Shown here piece by piece: positions 2,308 through 64,000 of a DNA stretch of 64,000 bases. The stretch is from an uncultured virus (IMG/VR IMGVR_UViG_3300010233_000001) (lineage: Duplodnaviria; Heunggongvirae; Uroviricota; Caudoviricetes), in the IMG/VR virus record IMGVR_UViG_3300010233_000001; one strand, given 5' to 3'. Below the pieces are notes generated by a model. That model was not told where the DNA came from. It did no database searches and saw only the letters and a list, made by a program, of their open reading frames with translations. How positions within the stretch are numbered: position 1 is the stretch's first letter; the number at the start of each line of letters is the position of its first letter. The position numbers and the translations under genes are program-made.

Positions 2308-3048
2308 TTATGCAGCGTTTTTCTTTTGCCAATGATGACGGGGCGGTAATGCAAGTCCGTAGCCTTTTGCCCATTTCCTTACAGCATTATCAGATACTTC
2401 AAAATATTCAGCAAGTTGTGTAGCTGGCTTTTCCCAAATGAGTTGTCCCAATACTTCTTTAGTGGGTCTTTCTACCTTTCTGGTAGCGGGGCGAGGACTG
2501 TTTCTCCAATCTGGGTTAATTTGAGAGGGGCTTGGTGGGCTATCTTTTTTATGTCTGCGCCCGCCAAATGTATCAGTTTGACTATGACAATGAGGACAAA
2601 GTATTCTGAGATTTTCAATCCTGTTATCGTTGCAAACTCCATTGATATGATCAATCTGAAGAGATAACGGTTTACCATTCCATTCGGGCAATTGACCGCA
2701 GATAGCACACTTGTTTTCCAATAGCCCTTCTTTTATGAGGCGCTTTTTCAGATTACTTCTGTTAAGAGTAGAATCTATCACCAGAATGTCTTCTAAGGGA
2801 GAAGATTTTCGTGAAGAACGTTTCCCCTTATTATGACCGAGCCCAAGAGCAATGTGCGAATAATCTATCCCATCAAATTGTAATCGGGCCTTCAAACTCA
2901 CATACGATGCACTACGATTATCTAATCCAAATGACATTAGAACTTGGTTAAGGGAGGTGGCATTTTTAACTGTTGCCTCTAACGCGATTTTTTCGATGCG
3001 CCAAACGGCACTTCTTTTACGACGAGGCTTGATGGTAGGGCCACTCAT
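2308..3048 (-). CDS. HNH homing endonuclease between tRNA-Gln genes
   Basis: CAICG...LQIDHING...NRIENLRILCPHCHSQT with a C-terminal HTH-like segment. Confidence 0.9.
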   Translation of the reverse strand: MSGPTIKPRRKRSAVWRIEKIALEATVKNATSLNQVLMSFGLDNRSASYVSLKARLQFDGIDYSHIALGLGHNKGKRSSRKSSPLEDILVIDSTLNRSNLKKRLIKEGLLENKCAICGQLPEWNGKPLSLQIDHINGVCNDNRIENLRILCPHCHSQTDTFGGRRHKKDSPPSPSQINPDWRNSPRPATRKVERPTKEVLGQLIWEKPATQLAEYFEVSDNAVRKWAKGYGLALPPRHHWQKKNAA

Positions 3049-3096
3049 ACCCCACTATATATCCTGTCAATAGCGAACTGAAATCCGAAAATTGCT

Positions 3097-3172
3097 TGGT
3101 TGGAGAACTCAGAGTCGAACTGAGATAAGATGGGTCAAAGCCATCCGTAATGAACCGTTATACTATTCTCCA
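3097..3172 (-). tRNA. tRNA-Gln(TTG)
   Basis: Cloverleaf with GATGG-CTTTGAC-CCATC and CCA. Confidence 0.9.
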
Positions 3173-3182
3173 ATGCGTATGT

Positions 3183-3362
3183 CTATATATCGTTATTACC
3201 AGAACCTTGCGGATAATTTCGTGCCGCAGCGTCTAAAGCTGCGAAGATAGCCTCGTCCTCTGCCTGCATAATTTGTTGGCGCATGCGCTCAATCATGTCA
3301 GCCCAATTGAGGGGATTTTTAGTTAGCTTACCAGCCGAGTTGATATGAAAAGGTAACCTCAC
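3183..3362 (-). CDS. 59-aa mini-protein: shared leader plus capsid-like fragment 4 (not in the ORF track)
   Basis: GTG start overlapping the upstream TGA; MRLPFHINSAGKLTKNPLNWADMIERMRQQIMQAEDEAIFAALDAAARNYPQGSGNNDI. Confidence 0.75.
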   Translation of the reverse strand: MRLPFHINSAGKLTKNPLNWADMIERMRQQIMQAEDEAIFAALDAAARNYPQGSGNNDI

Positions 3363-3586
3363 AAAGTCCCCTTGTCAACCAATTTTCCTTGGCACGTAAT
3401 GCGAAACTTTAGATTCCGAATAGCGCGGTCGATGATATTGAAACGACGTCTCTTGACTTCAGAAATTCTGATAACCGGATTAGCAAAGATTTCAAATTCC
3501 GGAACAACAACTCTGTTTCCAAAAATCCCACGATGAGGAGTATTTACTAATTTGCCGCTAGAATTGATTTGTAATGGTGTTTTCAC
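3359..3586 (-). CDS. 75-aa mini-protein: shared leader plus capsid-like fragment 3
   Basis: MKTPLQINSSGKLV...IFGNRVVVPEFEIFANPVIRISEVKRRRFNIIDRA. Confidence 0.8.
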   Translation of the reverse strand: MKTPLQINSSGKLVNTPHRGIFGNRVVVPEFEIFANPVIRISEVKRRRFNIIDRAIRNLKFRITCQGKLVDKGTL

Positions 3587-3599
3587 ACTCCATCATATA

Positions 3600-3836
3600 T
3601 CATTCCTCTTCAGAATCGTCACCAATTGGATCCCTCTCATAGTAGGGAAGTGCGCCCAGTGACATTTGATCAACTACTAAACATCGACGAGCCATGCTTT
3701 GATAATCAAAATTTCTACGAAAAAGATTCGCTATGGCAGATCTACCCTTAAAAGAAACGGCTTTTTGAAAAAGCCTATCTTTCCAAGAATCATCAATCAG
3801 TTTGCCGTCGGGAGTGATCGTAAGAGAGCGCCGCAT
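3600..3836 (-). CDS. 78-aa mini-protein: shared leader plus capsid-like fragment 2
   Basis: MRRSLTITPDGKLI...ANLFRRNFDYQSMARRCLVVDQMSLGALPYYERD. Confidence 0.8.
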   Translation of the reverse strand: MRRSLTITPDGKLIDDSWKDRLFQKAVSFKGRSAIANLFRRNFDYQSMARRCLVVDQMSLGALPYYERDPIGDDSEEE

Positions 3837-4031
3837 ACCGCAACATATATCACTTACTTACCAGATCCCTACTTTGACAATATCGTCATAGTCCCGTTGA
3901 GCCATATAGTATCTCGTGGGTTGAAGCGACCAACTATCTATTTCTCTTTTGAGAGAACGAAGATTAGCTGTTGCTTTGCTGGTAATCTTACCATCGGGTG
4001 TAATGACTATTGGGCATTGCATCTAACCTAC

Positions 4032-4166
4032 TTAAAAATAAGCCTTGCCAGCCTTGAGCTGTTCAATAGCCTTGGCAATCATAGCCGCACGTTTATCTGC
4101 ATCTCTTGCGGCTGTAAGCCAATGAAGAATTTTACCATCTTGTGTGATAACAAATGGACATTTCAT
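4032..4166 (-). CDS. 44-aa mini-protein: shared leader plus possible capsid-like fragment 1
   Basis: MKCPFVITQDGKILHWLTAARDADKRAAMIAKAIEQLKAGKAYF, using an internal ATG of track ORF 4032..4283. Confidence 0.7.
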   Translation of the reverse strand: MKCPFVITQDGKILHWLTAARDADKRAAMIAKAIEQLKAGKAYF

Positions 4167-4239
4167 ATGGTGTCTCGCGTGAGAATTACACCCACTTCTC
4201 TGTCTGTGCCAATTGCCATGCGATTGAACATTGGGGATA

Positions 4240-4362
4240 TGGTGGATCATTCGGGATTTGAACCCGGCTACTGACAGAGCCATGTGGAAATACCAGTAGT
4301 AAGCCTTCTTCTATAACCCATTACCAGACGGTTTACGAATATCCAGGTCATGTCTAGGACCC
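4240..4362 (-). ncRNA. D-arm-less tRNA-like RNA with G3:U70 and a long irregular stem
   Basis: GGGTCCT/ATGATCC-A-CCA acceptor, T-arm CCGGG-TTCAAAT-CCCGA, about 80-nt imperfect hairpin between them. Confidence 0.55.
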
Positions 4363-4459: not shown

Positions 4460-4534
4460 TGGTGGATAACATCGGGAGTCGAACCCGAATTTATACCTTG
4501 CCGAGGTATTGTGTTCCCATTACACCATGAACCC
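4460..4534 (-). tRNA. tRNA-Ala(GGC), atypical (C33, bulged acceptor)
   Basis: ATACC-TCGGCAA-GGTAT, T-loop TTCGACT, CCA. Confidence 0.7.
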
Positions 4535-4957: not shown

Positions 4958-5415
4958 TTAGTTTCGAGGCTTACTTGTATTGGCGTACCCGACATCTTGA
5001 TCAATGGCCTTTTGAACCAGATCAGTACATGGAACATTACTAATGACTACGGCACTATTACTGCTAAGAGCATAACATAGATTAGTGCGCGGGTCCTTCA
5101 GATAGGTAATCTTACTAATTCTATCTTGAGGAGTTTGACAGGCAAACAAACTGAATAAACACATCGCCACAATAATCTTTTTCATTTAGCTAACAAAGCC
5201 TCTACTTCTGGTGAACAGGGCACTTGACTATAAACACGATCAGTTCCGATGGGATAGGAAGCAATACTACTAACCACAAAACAGTATCCAGTACGGTCAT
5301 CTTTGGCATACTCAAGAGTATTGACTTCATTCTTTTGAGCCTCTTGCATGATATGCGCCGGATGCAAATCACATCCGGCTAAACCTAATAAGGCAATAAC
5401 TATTAGTGCTTTCAT
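4958..5415 (-). CDS. Two tandem paralogous small lipoproteins (4958-5185 and 5182-5415)
   Basis: Lipobox-like LFAC and LAGC, shared Y.KD.RT..C...VPC. Confidence 0.65.
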
Positions 5416-13530: not shown

Positions 13531-13629
13531 TGCCCCAAGTGGGATTTGAACCCACGACCTTCCCTCCCGGGACGCTCTACCTGAGTTCCAAATTACATAT
13601 GATATTGGATCTCGCTGAGCTATTGGAGC
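13531..13629 (-). ncRNA. Anticodon-less tRNA mimic with a 31-nt D-loop hairpin
   Basis: Intact acceptor, D stem and T arm; anticodon arm is TCCC-GGGA-GGGA. Confidence 0.65.
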
Positions 13630-15174: not shown

Positions 15175-15192
15175 ATCTTTCTATATATCAGA

Positions 15193-19325: not shown

Positions 19326-20213
19326 TCATAGGGTGATCTCCGGGAACGCATCCTTGAAAGTTTCATATAGAACGGGTGGCTGCCTGGTATCGTAGACAGC
19401 AAAACAAACGTGCTCGAAAGCAGGAACTTTGCTCAGAGCAATGGTAAAAGCTGCTGCTACTTGCTCTGCGCTATTCCCAAAAGCTCCGCAACCCCAAGCG
19501 CCTAGGATGATGTTTTTGTGTCCGTGAAGTTCGGCAACCTGAAGAACCTTGGTGGCTCGACTAACCAAAGTCGCCCCAAGAGTGGAATTCAACTCTTCGT
19601 CTTCTTGCCAAGTCTTGGGCGCTTTCATAGCAGTAACATTTGGGGCAGGCGCAGTGATGAGAGATAGCTCGAAGGGATTTTCCAGGAACAAAAGGCGTTC
19701 ATCACGGATGAATGGCACCTTAGGAGAGTAGATCACTCCGTCTGTATAGAGAGTGTCTGGGGATAGAATATTGTCATTGTAGAAGACTGGCTTGTTCTTG
19801 AGACAAGCATAAAGTCCTGAACAACGGCACAAATCTTCTTCTTGGGCAAGAGCCCCCGCAATGAATCCGCCGCCCACATTTTTGGCCGCTGCAAAATTGA
19901 GGGCCACTAAATCTGTTTTACCGAGTGTAAGCAGACGGACTGCTGCTTGAGCGGTGGTCTCGTTAGTTACTTCAAATTTAGGAATGATGGTTGGTAGGTT
20001 CTTGAGTGGTAGGCTATTACGATAATATAGGGTTCCTTTTACAGCAGCTTCCATGGAGATCGAAATATCTACTTGTTTACCGCTCAGGGCGGTATAGTTT
20101 CCCTGTTTCAGTATATCAATCTGCTCTTTAGCAATATTGGAATATTTGCTTCTGGTATTCATAGCTGCTACCGCTACTTGACCCACTGGTTTGATCTTAA
20201 ACATGATTATCAC
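19326..20213 (-). CDS. TIGR02452/DUF2263 microbial PARG-type macrodomain
   Basis: LNFAAAKNVGGGF..GALAQEEDLCRCS...ILGAWGCGAFGN. Confidence 0.9.
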   Translation of the reverse strand: MIIMFKIKPVGQVAVAAMNTRSKYSNIAKEQIDILKQGNYTALSGKQVDISISMEAAVKGTLYYRNSLPLKNLPTIIPKFEVTNETTAQAAVRLLTLGKTDLVALNFAAAKNVGGGFIAGALAQEEDLCRCSGLYACLKNKPVFYNDNILSPDTLYTDGVIYSPKVPFIRDERLLFLENPFELSLITAPAPNVTAMKAPKTWQEDEELNSTLGATLVSRATKVLQVAELHGHKNIILGAWGCGAFGNSAEQVAAAFTIALSKVPAFEHVCFAVYDTRQPPVLYETFKDAFPEITL

Positions 20214-20484
20214 ACCTTTTTATTACGTCTCTTCATAAGAGGAGCTTTCATTATAATAGCTATTAGAAGTACCTAAATAACTAACAGTAACACTACTTAG
20301 TCTCTAAGAACATATGATTTTGAACCACATGGACATTCGAGAATGAATTTATCTTCGTGTACCTTTTTTAGATCTTCTTCGTCTTCCAGGCCCACACTTA
20401 CTATCATTTGACATTCATGGCATTTAAAAAGGAATTTCCGTTTCTTGTCGGTGAACATAAAGATATGCTAGAATTTTAGCATGA

Positions 20485-21675
20485 CTAAAATGCCAAAACA
20501 GATAATATCTGACCAAGCGTTGACCAATCGACCAACTTATTATCCACTAATTCCTGGACAGTATACACCTCAATAAAGGTCATTTCAGTATCTTCAATGT
20601 TGCCATAAACAATTCCTTTTTGATCTTTGAACCAATCCATTTCTCGTGATTTTAATTTGACCGAAAAAAGATTTGATTTGTGAGCCGAGAAAGTTCCGGC
20701 CAATTGGCGGGCTCCGTGACTGTCAAGACGGGATGGATCTAACTCAAATCCAGTCTCCTCTTTGATTTCTTCTACGGCAGTAGCGGCAGGATCTCTTTCT
20801 TTGCGAGAAGAGCCAGCTGGCAATTCTCTAATGAATCCATCCTCTGTTGAGGCAGGAGAACGGAACTCTTTGACCAAGACTACCTGGTAATCAAAGACAG
20901 AATCTCCATCAGGCGGATCATAATACATCAATACAGAAGAGGTGCTAGGACGAGAACAAACTATTTCATTGGCTTTGATACGATCTTCGGAGGTCACATA
21001 AACTTCCACTTTGAGTATCCAAAGAAAAGTAAACTTCTTGAAGCCGGGGCGGAACGTATAAAGAAGCCTGGCGTTCTCTAGACGATTGCTGGCTCCGGTT
21101 TGAGCCTGGTACCACTCTTGGAAGCTATCCAATTTCCAGACAAAGAGAGGAACGAATCGTTCGCCTCCTGAACGCTCGGCACCATCTCCCACCATTTCCA
21201 TGGCGTCATCCATGCAATCGGCTAGAGTCTCGGAGACTGGAGCGTTGTAAACTTCCGAGTAATGTTTGAGGTAACCGTTTTTCTCTGAATCAGTAGAACA
21301 ACCAAAAACTATCTTCCCTGAGTCTGCCCAGGCTCCAAATTCTACATTCGTAGTAAAAGCTGGCAATTTCAAATTACCATCCTTATCCAAGGATAAATCT
21401 CTTGGAACCCAGAAAACTATGCAATCTGCTACGTTCAGATATTTTTCTTCCCAATTGATTTGGTTGTCATAACTGAAGCTTTTATCAAATTTCCCATCTC
21501 TATTTTCTGGGCAAAACACAAGTCCGTCGTATCCTTTATGGTCTAAAATTTGCAGGGCATTTTTACGCCAAGATTCCATTTCTTTTTCTTGACCGGGACG
21601 AAGTGAAGGCCCAGCCAAAAAAATGCTTTTTGTAATAGTTTCGGGCATTTCCTCGCCTGTATAAACAACTTGCAT
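20485..21675 (-). CDS. Nucleoside 2-deoxyribosyltransferase-like plus Nudix fusion
   Basis: SIFLAGP...SWR...QINWE...TTNVEFG and C-terminal ELPAG...AVEEIKEETG. Confidence 0.8.
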   Translation of the reverse strand: MQVVYTGEEMPETITKSIFLAGPSLRPGQEKEMESWRKNALQILDHKGYDGLVFCPENRDGKFDKSFSYDNQINWEEKYLNVADCIVFWVPRDLSLDKDGNLKLPAFTTNVEFGAWADSGKIVFGCSTDSEKNGYLKHYSEVYNAPVSETLADCMDDAMEMVGDGAERSGGERFVPLFVWKLDSFQEWYQAQTGASNRLENARLLYTFRPGFKKFTFLWILKVEVYVTSEDRIKANEIVCSRPSTSSVLMYYDPPDGDSVFDYQVVLVKEFRSPASTEDGFIRELPAGSSRKERDPAATAVEEIKEETGFELDPSRLDSHGARQLAGTFSAHKSNLFSVKLKSREMDWFKDQKGIVYGNIEDTEMTFIEVYTVQELVDNKLVDWSTLGQILSVLAF

Positions 21676-24905: not shown

Positions 24906-25485
24906 TTTCCTTAATCTTTTCTTTGAGGTGAGAAATTACCCGACTGATTGACTTGACAATAAAGACACTATTCTGAGCCCCCATCGCCTTGATATGATCC
25001 GAGTCTTCTCCATGAATCTTGAAGTTATATTCTAGCCATCTATCTTTGATAATCAAGTTAGCTGCCGACATCCAAAAACAATAATCTCGGATAACAGATG
25101 TCCCAATATTTTCACAGTCTCTGTAGTCCGTATCGTTGTCAGATCGATTGAGGAAGATAACTACGTCCTGCTTGAAGTCAAACAAGGACGCGAAATCTCT
25201 GGGAGAAGAGATGCCGTCGATGATACAGGTCGCATCTCTTCCACTAATTTCAATTATCTCATTGATGTAATCGATAACAAATTGCGGATTGATCAAAGTA
25301 CGAATCGCTAGATAGGACTGATACTCATCTTCATATTGCTGGATATGTTCTCCCGGTTTACGATCACGAAAGGTAGATCGAACCCATGACATAGCATTGA
25401 TATAATGATATCCATATTCATCAACAATTGCCTTAGCAATTGTCGTTCGACCACTTTTTGGGAGACCAATGATGAAGATTTTCAT
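24886..25485 (-). CDS. P-loop nucleotide kinase-like protein
   Basis: IFIIGLPKSGRTT...IIDG. Confidence 0.6.
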   Translation of the reverse strand: MKIFIIGLPKSGRTTIAKAIVDEYGYHYINAMSWVRSTFRDRKPGEHIQQYEDEYQSYLAIRTLINPQFVIDYINEIIEISGRDATCIIDGISSPRDFASLFDFKQDVVIFLNRSDNDTDYRDCENIGTSVIRDYCFWMSAANLIIKDRWLEYNFKIHGEDSDHIKAMGAQNSVFIVKSISRVISHLKEKIKEIVHGLS

Positions 25486-25901
25486 AGCACTACATTCTCA
25501 TATATCGACATCTAGGGCAGAAGAATTTCTTGAATTTCATTACATCTAGTCGCTACTTGTTCATGAGTATAAATTATATTTTTCTTAAAGAGAGCAAGCT
25601 CAAATGAATGAGTAATCAAAGCATAAGCTTCAGCGCGAGCCTCACGGATAGTTGAGAAAATAACATGACTGCAATAGATAGGTGGAACCATTATCTTTTC
25701 TTTAGCACTTGAAATTTCTTTAGGCTCGTAAAGAGTTTCTGGTTTCAGAATACGAAATTTGAATTCGCCTTCTGGAAGCCACATAACTGATGGGTCTTCT
25801 ACTGCCAAAATCATTTCTCCATCCACCTCTACGATAAGAGGAGATTCTGTTATCTTGCATTGAACGGGAAGGAACCTAGTATAAACTATAAATTTTCTCA
25901 T

Positions 25902-31137: not shown

Positions 31138-32268
31138 TTATAGCGTCTTATTTCTGATTTCAGTGGAACTGATGTCCCATTCTCCCTTGATCGGGAGCAT
31201 AATGATACGAGCCGAAGCCCATACGTTGAAGGGATGATTAGCTTTTATGTCATCGAGAATGTTTTCACAGGTAGTGAAAACACCATTGACCTCTCGACCT
31301 ACGATGAAGAGCTTAGTTCCCATCTCATAGAAGCTTCCGAGCATCTCTTTGACGTCCAAACCCCACTTAGGATCCAACATACGGACCATAGCATCAGCAC
31401 CAAGGACCAACGGCATCTTAGGGAAGGCGCGAGCCTTGTCGATGTAGAAGGGCTCCTTCTGAGTGAAGATACGATCACGACCCTGAAGTAGCTTGGCACG
31501 CTGCAAAAGCTGCTGAACAGTCAGTGCATTCTTGTGCGGGGGCTCGGCCGTTACCTCAAAGAGCACACTCTTGTGGAAGGCATACTGCACCTCTTCCGCA
31601 ATTCCAAAGTGCCCTTCATGCGGCGGGTTGTAAGCACCCGGCATCAGAGCATACAGCTCATTAGTGCCCCTCGGATTGGGGACTTCAGCGAATCTTTTAC
31701 CATTGGCAGCGAAGAAAGGACGAGCAAAGAATCGTTCCTTAGCAAACTCCGTAGCGTCCTGATACTCTTGCAGAGGTGGGCCACTATCATCTACCGGAAA
31801 AGCAGAGATACCAAGAGCGTCCAGCATCATATAGAAAGCAGAATCGTTGCAAGCATCACCATCTGAGTGGCGTGCTACCTGTCCAAGTCCTTTGAGCAAA
31901 ACCTTCTCGAAGGTCAAGACTTTTTCATCTGTTATGATGCAGATATCAAAGCGATGCTCACCCCTATGAATCCTTTCAGAGGCCACAGAGGCGGTCAAAC
32001 CGATACCAACAGGCTTCTTCCCACCGAACTTATAGGCCTTCATGTAAGCTGCGCTGGCCAAGTCTACAGCCGCTTCTCGGCTGACAAAATGTTCTGGCAT
32101 GAACCCCAACAGCTCTTCTTGTTCAGATTGATCGTAAGGGAAAGAGGAGCCCGAAAGGTAGGCTGAGGAGCCTGGAACACCCCACAATTCATTCTGAATG
32201 CCCGCTCCGCCACCAGTAGCGATGACGTGGATATTGACACCAAGTTCTTTTAATTTGTCAGACCACAT
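31138..32268 (-). CDS. CinA-like plus HxGH nucleotidyltransferase (NMN/NaMN adenylyltransferase-like) fusion
   Basis: ATGGGA...VPGSSAY...VSREAAVDLA; PGAYNPPHEGH; LGADA; ISSTEIR. Confidence 0.8.
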   Translation of the reverse strand: MWSDKLKELGVNIHVIATGGGAGIQNELWGVPGSSAYLSGSSFPYDQSEQEELLGFMPEHFVSREAAVDLASAAYMKAYKFGGKKPVGIGLTASVASERIHRGEHRFDICIITDEKVLTFEKVLLKGLGQVARHSDGDACNDSAFYMMLDALGISAFPVDDSGPPLQEYQDATEFAKERFFARPFFAANGKRFAEVPNPRGTNELYALMPGAYNPPHEGHFGIAEEVQYAFHKSVLFEVTAEPPHKNALTVQQLLQRAKLLQGRDRIFTQKEPFYIDKARAFPKMPLVLGADAMVRMLDPKWGLDVKEMLGSFYEMGTKLFIVGREVNGVFTTCENILDDIKANHPFNVWASARIIMLPIKGEWDISSTEIRNKTL

Positions 32269-43530: not shown

Positions 43531-43591
43531 ACCTTACTATATATCTAGACTTTCACTTTTGTGAAGTGGAAACTGTATCTCTATTGAGTAT

Positions 43592-51593: not shown

Positions 51594-51893
51594 GTAAATG
51601 GTAGTGCAATCTATATATCGTCTTATTACCTTATTTGACGGCCTGAACGGCTTGTTTAAGGGCATCCATCTTCTTCATCATGATGGGGACCGTCTTGAAG
51701 GAAAACTGAGGCCAGAAGGTTAGGATATCTTTAGAGTAAAGAAGGACTAACTCCAGGGCCTCAGCTCGATCATTCTGACGTTCTGGTGGTAAAGGGTTAT
51801 CCTTACCACAACCTTCGCACATGACTGCCTGATCACCGGGGGCATATTGTCGCCCACAAGAACAGAAACGATTGTGATAAGTTTTCATAACGA

Positions 51894-61399: not shown

Positions 61400-64000
61400 A
61401 ACTGTATCCTTATGGGCACGCTTTGCCAGCAGTAACTGCTGGGTGTGGGTTGCCGTTAGATTCTAAGATATACAAAGTAGTTTCATTGCTACCGATATTC
61501 TGACTGACATACTTCATTACTACGAACCACATCAGTTTTTTATCTGTCAGCTCTGGAAGTTTACTTGAGATATACGATTCCATTTTTGTAGGATGCGATG
61601 GCAATTCTTCTATCTCCCAAGCTTTCCAATGCTTGAATTCTTTTCCGTCCTGATCAGAAACCCTAGTAGGATCACAGGTAGCTAGATAGAACATTTACTT
61701 AGTGATTTCAAAGGTATGACAAACTTCTTCTAGAGAAGAAACTTCTCGTTTGAGCTTAGCTAAACGGTCAATGATACCGGTGCCAGTTATCAGCATCTTG
61801 TTCCTTTTGACGAATGGCATTAGCTGTTTAGGCTCTTCGAAAGAAATAGAAATATAGTCATTAAGAGAATCAAACTGAAGTCGAATCCCACCCTCCAAAT
61901 CAAACCGGTCAAACTGGGAATTGTAACAAGTAAATAGTTTGACTATAGGACCTATTTTACCACTAAATGAATCTCGAGATTCCAAATAGAATCTTGTTCC
62001 GTTACTCAGTTTAAATTCCCAATTGGTATCAGCCAGAATATTTTCGTTCTGAATTAGTTGGCCAACCAGTATATCACGTTCTTCACGTAAAATACAAGCT
62101 TCTGTAATAAGTCGGTTCTCGGCGTCTTCTTTCTCTTTGATTTGAGCAGTGAGTTCTGTAATTTTATCTTGGAGAGACATTACCAGCTCACTTTGATGTA
62201 GCAATCATTGCCACAAAAGTCTGTGCCATTAGCATATTGCAAAGAAAATCCTAAAGACTCTAACTTCTGAATCAGAGGCGGAGCCGTCAGCTTGGCATAT
62301 CTTTCTCCACGCCACGTTCCAGGGGAGTGGATAGAGAACCAGCGATCCAAAAGATAGTCATGATCCTCTACAGAGACCTTAGCTATCAGAGAGGACTTGC
62401 CATCTGCGGCTGCGGCATTGCACAGTTTGAGGACCCTGCCAGTGGTCTTGTCACAGTTGGCAGCAATATCCCTTAGAGTAGCGGCAATGTTGATATCGAT
62501 GTTATCGAATTTATCTGTCATCTTTAACTCGGGTCAAGTTCCAAACCATCGCCTGCGTTGGCGCGGGTAACCTTCTTACCATCGTTCCAGATCAGAACGG
62601 TATTGGGGTAAGCTATAAACGTAATAGCTTTCGCTTCAGGATCAATCGCCCAAGACTTATGGCCAGCCGCCGTGCACATCTTTTTAGCTTTAGCAAGAGT
62701 AACTCCAGTTAGAGTGTCCAAAAAACTTTGCTTGATCATTTCCTAGCTCCTAGCCATTTGAGATGTTCTTCGATTTGGAAGGCGAAGACCTCATCATTAG
62801 CGAAGTTGCCCATCTCCAGTTGATGTTGGACTTCCATTAGAAGTTTGACGCTCTTGATTTCACCAGCTGACTTGCCCATCATCCACTGAGGATCGATGTA
62901 GGTATGAGTGTTAGGCGACAAACCTGAGGGAACATTAGCCGTCACTACATCCACGATGGAAGCTGTCCCTTGATCTGCCATAAAGTCGGGAGACGGAGGT
63001 GCGACATTGTCAATGACGATGCCAGTGTTCTCCAAAGTGCCAGAGCACACAGTATCAATCTTAAGGACTCGACCGGATGGAAAGGTTAGAGTCAGACAGT
63101 CATGCTCGCGCATGCCTGAACCCGGCTCTTCTTCGAGGGTTTCCAGTTTGACATCCTTCAGCTCACCCAGCATAATCATGCCAGTTAGGATAGGCATAGT
63201 GGCGGAGCTATGAATCTTATTTTGTTTATCATTCATTTGTTGATGTCCTTATATATCTTGTTGACTATATCAGCCACCGGAAAGATTTGATGAAACAACT
63301 CGAACAAGCGATCGATCTCTTCTAGGTTGAGGGGAGAATTATTAAACTTTCTACCCTGAAGCTGTTCGTATTCTTCTAGTTCTGCCTCGGTAACCGCTGG
63401 ATTATCTTGAAGAATCTTCTGTCGATTAAGCGGTTCCATGTTGATCCTTAGTGCTAGGCTGGCGGAAAACAGTAAGCCATCCCAATCATCATATACATGA
63501 AAAGTGACATGGCCAAGCTAAGAGATAACCATTCTACAATGGTATACTCTACCTTCTCACCACGAGCTTTGGCATTAGCGTCTTGGGCAATCCACTTAGA
63601 AAATGGATACATGAAGACAGTCAACGGAAGTATTGGTAAGCTAAGGCAGGCATAGATGGTAAGGATGATTACTTGCCTCTTGCTGAAGCTCTTCAACTCA
63701 GAACTTAGACTTGACCCAAGCACCAGCTGCCATCCCTGCAATGAAAACGATTGCTGTAAACATGATTTATTCTTCTCCAAATCGAAGGCCAATGTAACCC
63801 GGACCACGCTTTACTATTAGATTAGTACAGGTAGCTGCGGGTTTAGTTTCAGAGGGAACCTTACCGCGCTTGCGATCCAGTTCCTCTTGAGTGTATGGAA
63901 AGTAAAGGTCCGTTCGAATACGAAAGTCTTCTGGGTTCATTTACTTCTTCCTGTGATTATCAACTATCTTAGTGATGTGTTCCAAGAACGCAGGCAAATC

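Follow-up and report, generated by a model that had tools for sequence, protein, structure and literature searches.

Why would a phage carry a row of five very short genes that all open with the same leader peptide and then continue, in four cases, with a piece of a major capsid protein (MCP), and are these working genes or the wreckage of one capsid gene? The question is raised by a minus-strand locus of the uncultured virus IMG/VR IMGVR_UViG_3300010233_000001, of which a stretch of 64,000 nucleotides (the window) was analysed. The window, from a contig of 119,581 bp according to the protein collection, belongs to a huge phage that is a distant relative of Bacillus phage G, and its 396-amino-acid (aa) protein at 20485-21675 shares 45-46% identity with phage G gp334 and with a protein of a 485-kb uncultured phage. 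An initial annotation, made from the sequence of the locus, had proposed a cassette of capsid-mimic peptides. From the comparisons described below, it is very probable that the row encodes functional, translated mini-proteins that derive from MCP. To the further proposal that the whole set functions as mimics of MCP we give equal credence and doubt.

The minus strand from 4166 down to 3183 is filled by five tandem open reading frames (ORFs), which are separated by gaps of 9, 21 and 13 nt and then joined by a 4-nt overlap to form an operon-like row (Table 1). The initial annotation had listed ORF1, ORF3, ORF4 and ORF5 as consecutive; their places and leaders were given correctly but they are not consecutive, as ORF2 lies between the first and the second of them. 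The leader of all five reads M-[KRQ]-x-[PS]-[FLI]-x-I-[TN]-x-x-G-K-[LI], starting with ATG in three ORFs and with GTG in two, and its alignment contains no glutamate. When the window was scanned in six frames with a regular expression, the full motif appeared nowhere but at the starts of the five ORFs within 3183-4166. A hidden Markov model (HMM) of the leader scores the five ORFs at 21.6-30.6 bits, values that are inflated by the fact that the same five leaders built the model. Outside these five, the best match among the 486,172 residues obtained by translating the window and 50 loci in six frames scores 14.6 bits, in a locus that was fetched by a leader-like DNA pattern, and the next scores 10.2 bits. 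A sixth, degenerate copy of the leader lies in frame near the C-terminus of ORF4 and scores 5.7 bits with the leader HMM. As this copy also aligns with MCP 160-169, both by tblastn and by the MCP profile, its origin is ambiguous.

The bodies that follow the leader were compared with MCPs of the phage G type, which have the HK97 fold. MCP positions are numbered here according to the 336-aa MCP of an IMG/VR relative (locus L007), and the MCP profile was built from 16 MCPs, 13 of them from IMG/VR relatives and the others from phage G, LR745208 and Tunturi_5. Significant similarity was found in four of the five ORFs (profile scores of 19-63 bits), the exception being ORF1 at 0.4 bits. The strongest case is ORF4, which scores 63 bits with the MCP profile and matches residues 77-124 of the phage G capsid structure (PDB 6wkk_A) at E 8.4e-9 and phrog_2522, the major head protein family, at E 9.2e-5. 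ORF3 matches residues 9-64 of the same structure at E 1.7e-5 and scores 40.7 bits with the profile. The two remaining pieces are fainter: ORF2 gives 19.1 bits with the profile, E 7e-4 in tblastn with the L007 MCP and E 0.025 with phrog_2522, and ORF5 gives 20.6 bits and a tblastn E of 0.001. With 6wkk_A, no match was found for ORF2 and nothing significant for ORF5. A tblastn search of the window with full MCPs returned the same four places and nothing else, with no counterpart in the window of MCP 233-336. The resemblance to capsid protein that had been suggested for four bodies is thus borne out for ORF3, ORF4 and ORF5, extends to the overlooked ORF2 and fails for ORF1. Similarly, the successive order that had been read into the bodies applies to ORF3, ORF4 and ORF5, which are collinear with MCP, and does not apply to ORF2, whose piece lies upstream and out of order.

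Table 1. Features of the array and its surroundings (window coordinates; MCP positions follow the L007 protein)
Feature	Position	Strand	Description
ORF1	4166-4032	-	44 aa; leader MKCPFVITQDGKIL and helical body, not detectably MCP
ORF2	4022-3858	-	54 aa; leader MQCPIVITPDGKIT and MCP 198-232, out of order
ORF3	3836-3600	-	78 aa; leader MRRSLTITPDGKLI and MCP 45-106
ORF4	3586-3359	-	75 aa, GTG start; leader VKTPLQINSSGKLV and MCP 118-169; stop overlaps GTG start of ORF5
ORF5	3362-3183	-	59 aa, GTG start; leader VRLPFHINSAGKLT and MCP 159-184
Degenerate leader copy	about 3377-3409	-	KFRITCQGKLV, in frame near ORF4 C-terminus, no start codon
tRNA-Gln(UUG)	3097-3172	-	Directly downstream of the array; within the block common to strain variants
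Strain-conserved block	3095-4178	-	Five ORFs and tRNA-Gln; contig loose ends at 3095 and 4178 in runs X1-X3
GATATATG motif (GATATATR)	3594-3601	-	8 nt before ORF4 start; repeat family D3
GATATATR, further copies	3844-3851; 3184-3191; 3056-3063		Before ORF3; before tRNA-Gln; before HNH gene
GATATATR, elsewhere in the window	15182-15189; 25499-25506; 43538-43545; 51612-51619; 63250-63257; others		

The fragments are about as close to the MCPs of the L007 clade, segment by segment, as is the genuine MCP of phage G. Their identity to the L007 MCP ranges from 13/34 to 29/40 by segment; the upper value belongs to ORF4 over MCP 118-157, where the phage G MCP has 22 of the 40 positions in common with L007. 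To judge from these alignments, the four bodies are copies of segments from the first two thirds of an HK97 MCP of the phage G type. The segments presumably correspond to the N-arm region, to the E-loop and the strand that follows it, to the spine helix, and to the first helix and strand of the A-domain, a mapping that rests on the alignment and on general knowledge of the fold, as the AlphaFold2 (AF2) model of the relatives' MCP (13 near-identical sequences) reached a predicted local distance difference test (pLDDT) score of 35. Each ORF covers 26-62 of the 336 MCP positions and encodes 44-78 aa, not a single polypeptide of about 280-340 aa with N-arm, E-loop, P-domain and A-domain. With such lengths, the predicted mini-proteins cannot be capsid subunits.

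ORF1 carries the leader on a body of a different kind. In the AF2 model of ORF1 and its homologue P0005 (pLDDT 66.5), residues 5-7 and 13-15 pair as a beta-hairpin and residues 16-38 form one helix; the 14-residue leader is modelled, at low confidence, as a beta-hairpin module. When read by eye, ORF1 gives the order strand, helix, helix, and the leader of ORF3 resembles the N-terminal strand of CopG-type proteins. These features would suit small dimeric regulators similar to ribbon-helix-helix proteins, in which the leader would be the strand used for pairing and the origin of the helical bodies in MCP helices would be incidental. We regard this as the most improbable of the explanations discussed here: no such Pfam family is found on the ORFs at E values up to 10, there is no PDB sequence match, the model gives ORF1 a hairpin and one long helix, and the body of ORF4 is mostly strand-forming MCP sequence. 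A profile of ORF1 and P0005 likewise had no match in the PDB. Two other candidates were set aside. The Pfam family OmdA matches ORF1 at E 0.001 and 19.4 bits, under the cut-off of 25.6, and OmdA was also the first ESM Atlas match (0.84); the Pfam match is below threshold and absent from P0005, and an OmdA-like body is kept as a lead only. Apart from this match, Pfam found no family on the ORFs. The second candidate was a set of precursors of ribosomally synthesized and post-translationally modified peptides, for which neither a Pfam leader family on the ORFs nor a recognised maturase family among the 29 larger neighbouring proteins scanned was found.

Whether the row consists of genes can be judged from strain variants, which were found in contigs of four public runs from one study that are 92-98% identical to parts of the locus. 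The opposing explanation holds that an MCP gene was duplicated or captured, that frameshifts and rearrangements broke it up, and that the row is its decaying remnant, in which ORFs are open by chance. Several features agree with this: the parent frame is broken, with ORF4 read in a different frame from ORF3 and ORF5; one piece breaks the order; about ten MCP positions occur in both ORF4 and ORF5; the final 100 residues of MCP have no counterpart; mobile endonucleases abound at the locus; ORF3 has no homologue; and the architecture varies between strains. The strain differences speak against it. Third codon positions account for 30 of the 39 coding differences listed (binomial p 3e-8), and of the same 39 differences 28 are synonymous and 11 are not. 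By ORF, the synonymous and nonsynonymous changes number 3 and 1 in ORF1, 7 and 2 in ORF2, 4 and 3 among those listed in ORF3, and 11 (including one stop-to-stop change) and 5 in ORF5, where 13 of the 16 are at third positions. As a frame control, the annotated frame gives 14/20 and 11/16 synonymous differences and the frame of a 191-aa antisense ORF (3699-4274) gives 4/20; the sole other frame that scores equally is the antisense frame with the same third positions, which is not open.

Small homologues and the leader itself point in the same direction. P0005 is a 48-aa homologue of ORF1 (59% identity) that has the same start and keeps the leader and the C-terminus. P0010, a 55-aa homologue of ORF2 (83% identity), also has the same start; it scores 26.9 bits with the MCP profile, which makes it more MCP-like than ORF2, and it ends in KWGSGK, as in MCP. 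The five start codons are at the same position of the leader and the leader copies, compared in all 10 pairs and pooled, have a pS of 0.84 (synonymous positions saturated) and a pN of 0.37 (replacement positions conserved). Together with the strain differences, this pattern indicates that purifying selection maintains both the leader and the bodies. Given the third-position bias, the conserved small homologues and the selection on the leader peptide, the row is no plain decayed pseudogene, as the initial annotation had maintained; the decaying-remnant explanation is largely refuted and we consider it highly improbable. The initial annotation had also named missing collinear capsid matches and missing purifying selection as results that would speak against its proposal, and what was found is a set of collinear matches, with one extra piece out of order, under purifying selection.

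The source of the leader was sought within MCP and among relatives. TQDGKI, a string identical to part of the ORF1 leader, is present in the N-arm of the L007-clade MCP, although the leader HMM gives it 6 bits, which is background level. In the tblastn alignment, VVISSNG of MCP is in the position taken by the ORF4 leader. In a complete 448-kb relative (G001), a 223-aa protein encoded upstream of the MCP gene (L016:4040-4711) contains TPLYYNSSGKLT, which resembles the ORF4 leader at E 0.3, not above chance. These likenesses to the N-arm, to the E-loop position and to the upstream protein are suggestive and none is above background. In five related records, nothing leader-like was found beyond weak isolated matches. 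A profile search with ORF1 and P0005 against 1.84 billion representatives gave four matches at E up to 0.001, namely ORF1 itself and three proteins of 1127-1690 aa that match on short repeats.

A leader of this kind may be an address tag. The internal proteins of phage T4 (IPI, IPII, IPIII and others) have an N-terminal capsid targeting sequence on small unrelated bodies and are encoded at a variable locus near tRNA genes. By comparison with them, the mini-proteins of the array could be capsid-targeted passengers that the leader directs to the head during its assembly, to be co-injected, and the derivation of the bodies from MCP would be secondary. The array resembles the T4 locus in its short N-terminal leader on differing small proteins and in its plastic, tRNA-adjacent position; additionally, ORF1 has the leader on a non-MCP body and the leader peptide is under selection. 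We nevertheless consider this explanation rather improbable. The leader lacks a glutamate-ended protease motif of the T4 type, although the protease of this phage may differ in specificity, its relatives amount to the weak matches and repeat proteins described above, and the explanation does not account for the derivation of four of the five bodies from one protein.

Two properties of the locus and its clade bear on what the bodies might do. The first is that the MCP gene of the relatives is repeatedly interrupted. In 4 of the 11 relatives' loci examined (L019, L008, L015 and L022) the real MCP gene is divided into two or three parts, and the splits fall within codons about 71-98. In one of these loci (L019, 1400-3400) the gene is interrupted as many as three times, after codons about 71, 87 and 94; two of the intervening sequences are Rfam group I introns (82 and 72 bits) and the third, as judged by eye, holds a LAGLIDADG-type ORF. 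As the gene is split in these four loci and carries group I introns in one of them, the MCP gene is contested ground in this clade. The second is that the array belongs to a mobile-looking neighbourhood. HNH, DUF559 and LAGLIDADG endonuclease genes are scattered among the tRNA genes of the region, which number at least 16, and the array is bounded by a tRNA at 4464-4534 and by the tRNA-Gln. Contigs from all four runs match the window from 3095 or 3109 onward (three of them from 3095), and below 3095 they continue unlike the window in the three runs for which this was recorded. Since the block 3095-4178 is common to the strains and both of its flanks differ, it behaves as an accessory module.

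Because the pieces are too short to fold as capsid protein yet keep the best-conserved parts of the MCP sequence, we consider mimicry the most likely function. The mini-proteins would mimic unassembled MCP and occupy the surface that is normally met by those MCP segments, with the shared leader providing a common handle for stability, pairing or docking. How they would act is a matter of tentative preference: by dominant-negative co-folding or capping, they may disturb the capsid folding or assembly of co-infecting related phages, or they may tune the phage's own assembly. This is a possible but by no means probable mechanism; of its two forms, interference with related phages is preferred because the locus is accessory and the capsid gene is contested in the clade.

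Capsid protein is also a signal for host immunity, and Lit/Gol and CapRel are capsid-sensing defences. The mini-proteins may therefore be considered as immune decoys or antagonists that occupy a host capsid sensor and do not activate it, the leader being a common stabilising or effector handle. A Lit-like peptide sensor is activated by the capsid peptide, so that a copy of it would trigger the defence, not block it. It also weighs against a decoy that neither a host nor a defence system has been linked to this phage. The mosaic, accessory location of the array among tRNAs and homing endonucleases would suit a decoy, and defences that sense MCP do exist, among them Avs7, Avs8, Avs10 and Dsr1, according to the available part of one report (PMC13581612). 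From the same part of that report, what the Avs sensors recognise is the HK97 fold in its folded state, and this includes the face of the A-domain that forms capsomers (PMC13581612). Pieces of 26-62 residues cannot present this surface, and the array contains nothing from the C-terminal third of MCP. A precedent is offered by Bodo saltans virus, in which fragments of essential genes on ankyrin repeats were suggested to be decoys (PMC5871332, in the text available). Taken together, we think a decoy function unlikely.

A number of observations weigh against mimicry, or against the evidence for it, and they are collected here. ORF1 is not derived from MCP and therefore mimicry cannot explain the whole row. 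The phage's own MCP lies outside the window, and the fragments may match either self or a rival. The spine-helix and A-domain pieces, which we take to be core and not interface elements, fit co-folding less obviously than they fit capping. The evidence for selection comes from shallow contigs (depth 2-3.4) of a single study, possibly the source campaign of the window itself; 9 further strain differences exist beyond the 39 listed, differences near contig ends are unlisted, and stretches of the strain comparison that have no contig cover are no evidence of absence. In one run, a 1-nt deletion at 3873 trims ORF2 by 4 residues. A variant replaces 239 nt at the end of ORF3 and the start of ORF4 with 136 other letters, from which it follows that the architecture is not fixed; the loose end of this variant reads RRFNLIDR in the ORF4 frame, though most of the ORF4 body is replaced. 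A small homologue of ORF3 was not found among 5.8 billion proteins. Finally, no such array is present in phage G, LR745208, Tunturi_5, the complete 448-kb relative (G001) or a second IMG/VR relative (G002). In these five records there is also no intact ORF that has the leaders as internal sequence, an arrangement that the initial annotation had set against its proposal.

The absence of the array from these five relatives and the missing small homologue of ORF3 make it a narrow lineage trait. Wider searches gave a similar picture. When the IMG/VR relatives were searched with ORF3, only the ordinary MCP gene was found. The array region had no blastn match in 50,697 phage records, and tblastn of the same records with ORF1 and ORF2 gave only matches at E 2 and E 6. 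Scans of IMG/VR with ORF1 and P0005, with ORF2 and P0010 and with ORF5 returned 0, 2 and 1 loci, and all three loci are chance matches within unrelated ORFs. A scan of JGI metagenomes with ORF1 and P0005 returned 5 loci with the same 60% match to residues 1-20; in the one of the five that was inspected (L043), the match is internal to a larger unrelated ORF.

A short motif, GATATATR, is repeated in the window, with 13 copies where 4.75 would be expected; 11 of the 13 are on the minus (coding) strand. The copies that were checked lie about 8-21 nt upstream of the starts of three endonuclease genes, two tRNA-Gln genes, ORF3, ORF4 and the ORFs that start at 25485 and 63236. The motif may be a phage promoter-like element. 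A scan for sigma-70 promoters and terminators gave results at chance level only.

Several features of the surroundings were recorded in addition. An HNH endonuclease gene (2308-3048) lies directly downstream of the tRNA-Gln; as the strain contigs diverge from the window below 3095, it appears that some strains carry this gene and that in others it is missing or different. Just upstream of ORF1, at 4240-4272, is the 3' half of a tRNA (T-arm and acceptor end with CCA) with no 5' half, and its T-arm repeats the T-arm of the tRNA at 4464-4534 (repeat D7); this half-tRNA may have been left by recombination at the module's edge. Two Rfam tRNA matches, at 2170-2286 (117 nt, including a masked run of N) and at 13531-13629 (99 nt), exceed the normal length of a tRNA and may contain insertions or introns. 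The adjacent small ORFs at 4958-5185 (75 aa) and 5182-5415 (77 aa) have lipoprotein-like signal sequences, with a hydrophobic stretch and then a cysteine, and they look like tandem paralogues. Farther away, 19326-21675 and 31138-32268 encode a microbial PARG, a fusion of nucleoside deoxyribosyltransferase and NUDIX, and a cytidylyltransferase-like protein, all associated with ADP-ribose/NAD metabolism, and these genes may bear on counter-defence.

Should the mini-proteins indeed work as capsid mimics, phages would have a new class of accessory proteins, in which excerpts of the phage's own shell protein are used as tools. Such a class would bear on the competition of related phages within one cell, on how phages handle capsid-sensing immunity and on the birth of genes from pieces of old genes by the addition of a portable leader. 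It would also mark short MCP segments that are sufficient to engage a partner, which would be useful for the design of assembly inhibitors. By analogy with giant viruses, one may speculate that mini-genes composed of a tag and a self-fragment are a general weapon of huge phages, although we are inclined to doubt it. Such mini-genes would join a short portable module to excerpts of the most conserved structural protein of the virus itself. The dominant-negative fragments would then disrupt how related competitors assemble their capsids or leave capsid-sensing immunity blind, and this array would be an independent invention in which an N-terminal beta-hairpin tag was placed on pieces of a phage-G-type HK97 capsid protein. 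Phage G is a culturable model in which the general principle could be tested.

How does the array compare with known systems? Literature searches for phage capsid fragments, decoys, partial or truncated capsid genes and capsid pseudogenes, made in a limited literature set, returned no such phage design; the array has no described counterpart in phages. The four bodies are homologous, segment by segment, to gp27, the MCP of phage G (PDB 6wkk, HK97 fold, PHROG 2522), and to the 334-337-aa MCPs of related huge phages in IMG/VR. In contrast to these proteins, the pieces are separate genes with added leaders, one of them is out of order and MCP 233-336 is absent. Proteins that act on the capsid assembly of another element are known from satellites and include P4 Sid, SaPI CpmB, PLE TcaP and cf-PICI Ccm, the last of which is an MCP homologue. 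These redirectors are whole folded proteins of satellites, whereas the array encodes short MCP excerpts and is carried by a huge phage itself. The likeness to the T4 internal proteins is an analogy of design only, consisting of a short shared N-terminal leader, otherwise unrelated small proteins and a variable locus; the leader described here has no sequence likeness to that of T4 and no glutamate-ended motif of the T4 type, and the bodies are capsid fragments.

The nearest published analogue is found in Bodo saltans virus. The available part of the study by Deeg et al. (2018, PMC5871332) describes fragments of essential genes of the virus itself that are fused to an ankyrin-repeat module and are present as duplicated arrays in a plastic region of the genome, and mimicry or a decoy function was proposed for them. 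In the lineage of this virus, essential genes have been invaded by endonuclease-bearing introns, also according to that part of the study. As far as the available text of that study allows the comparison, both systems place fragments of essential genes on a common module in arrays. Bodo saltans virus is a eukaryotic giant virus with a large ankyrin-repeat module and fragments of replication and repair enzymes, while the array described here belongs to a phage and combines a 14-residue leader with pieces of the capsid protein.

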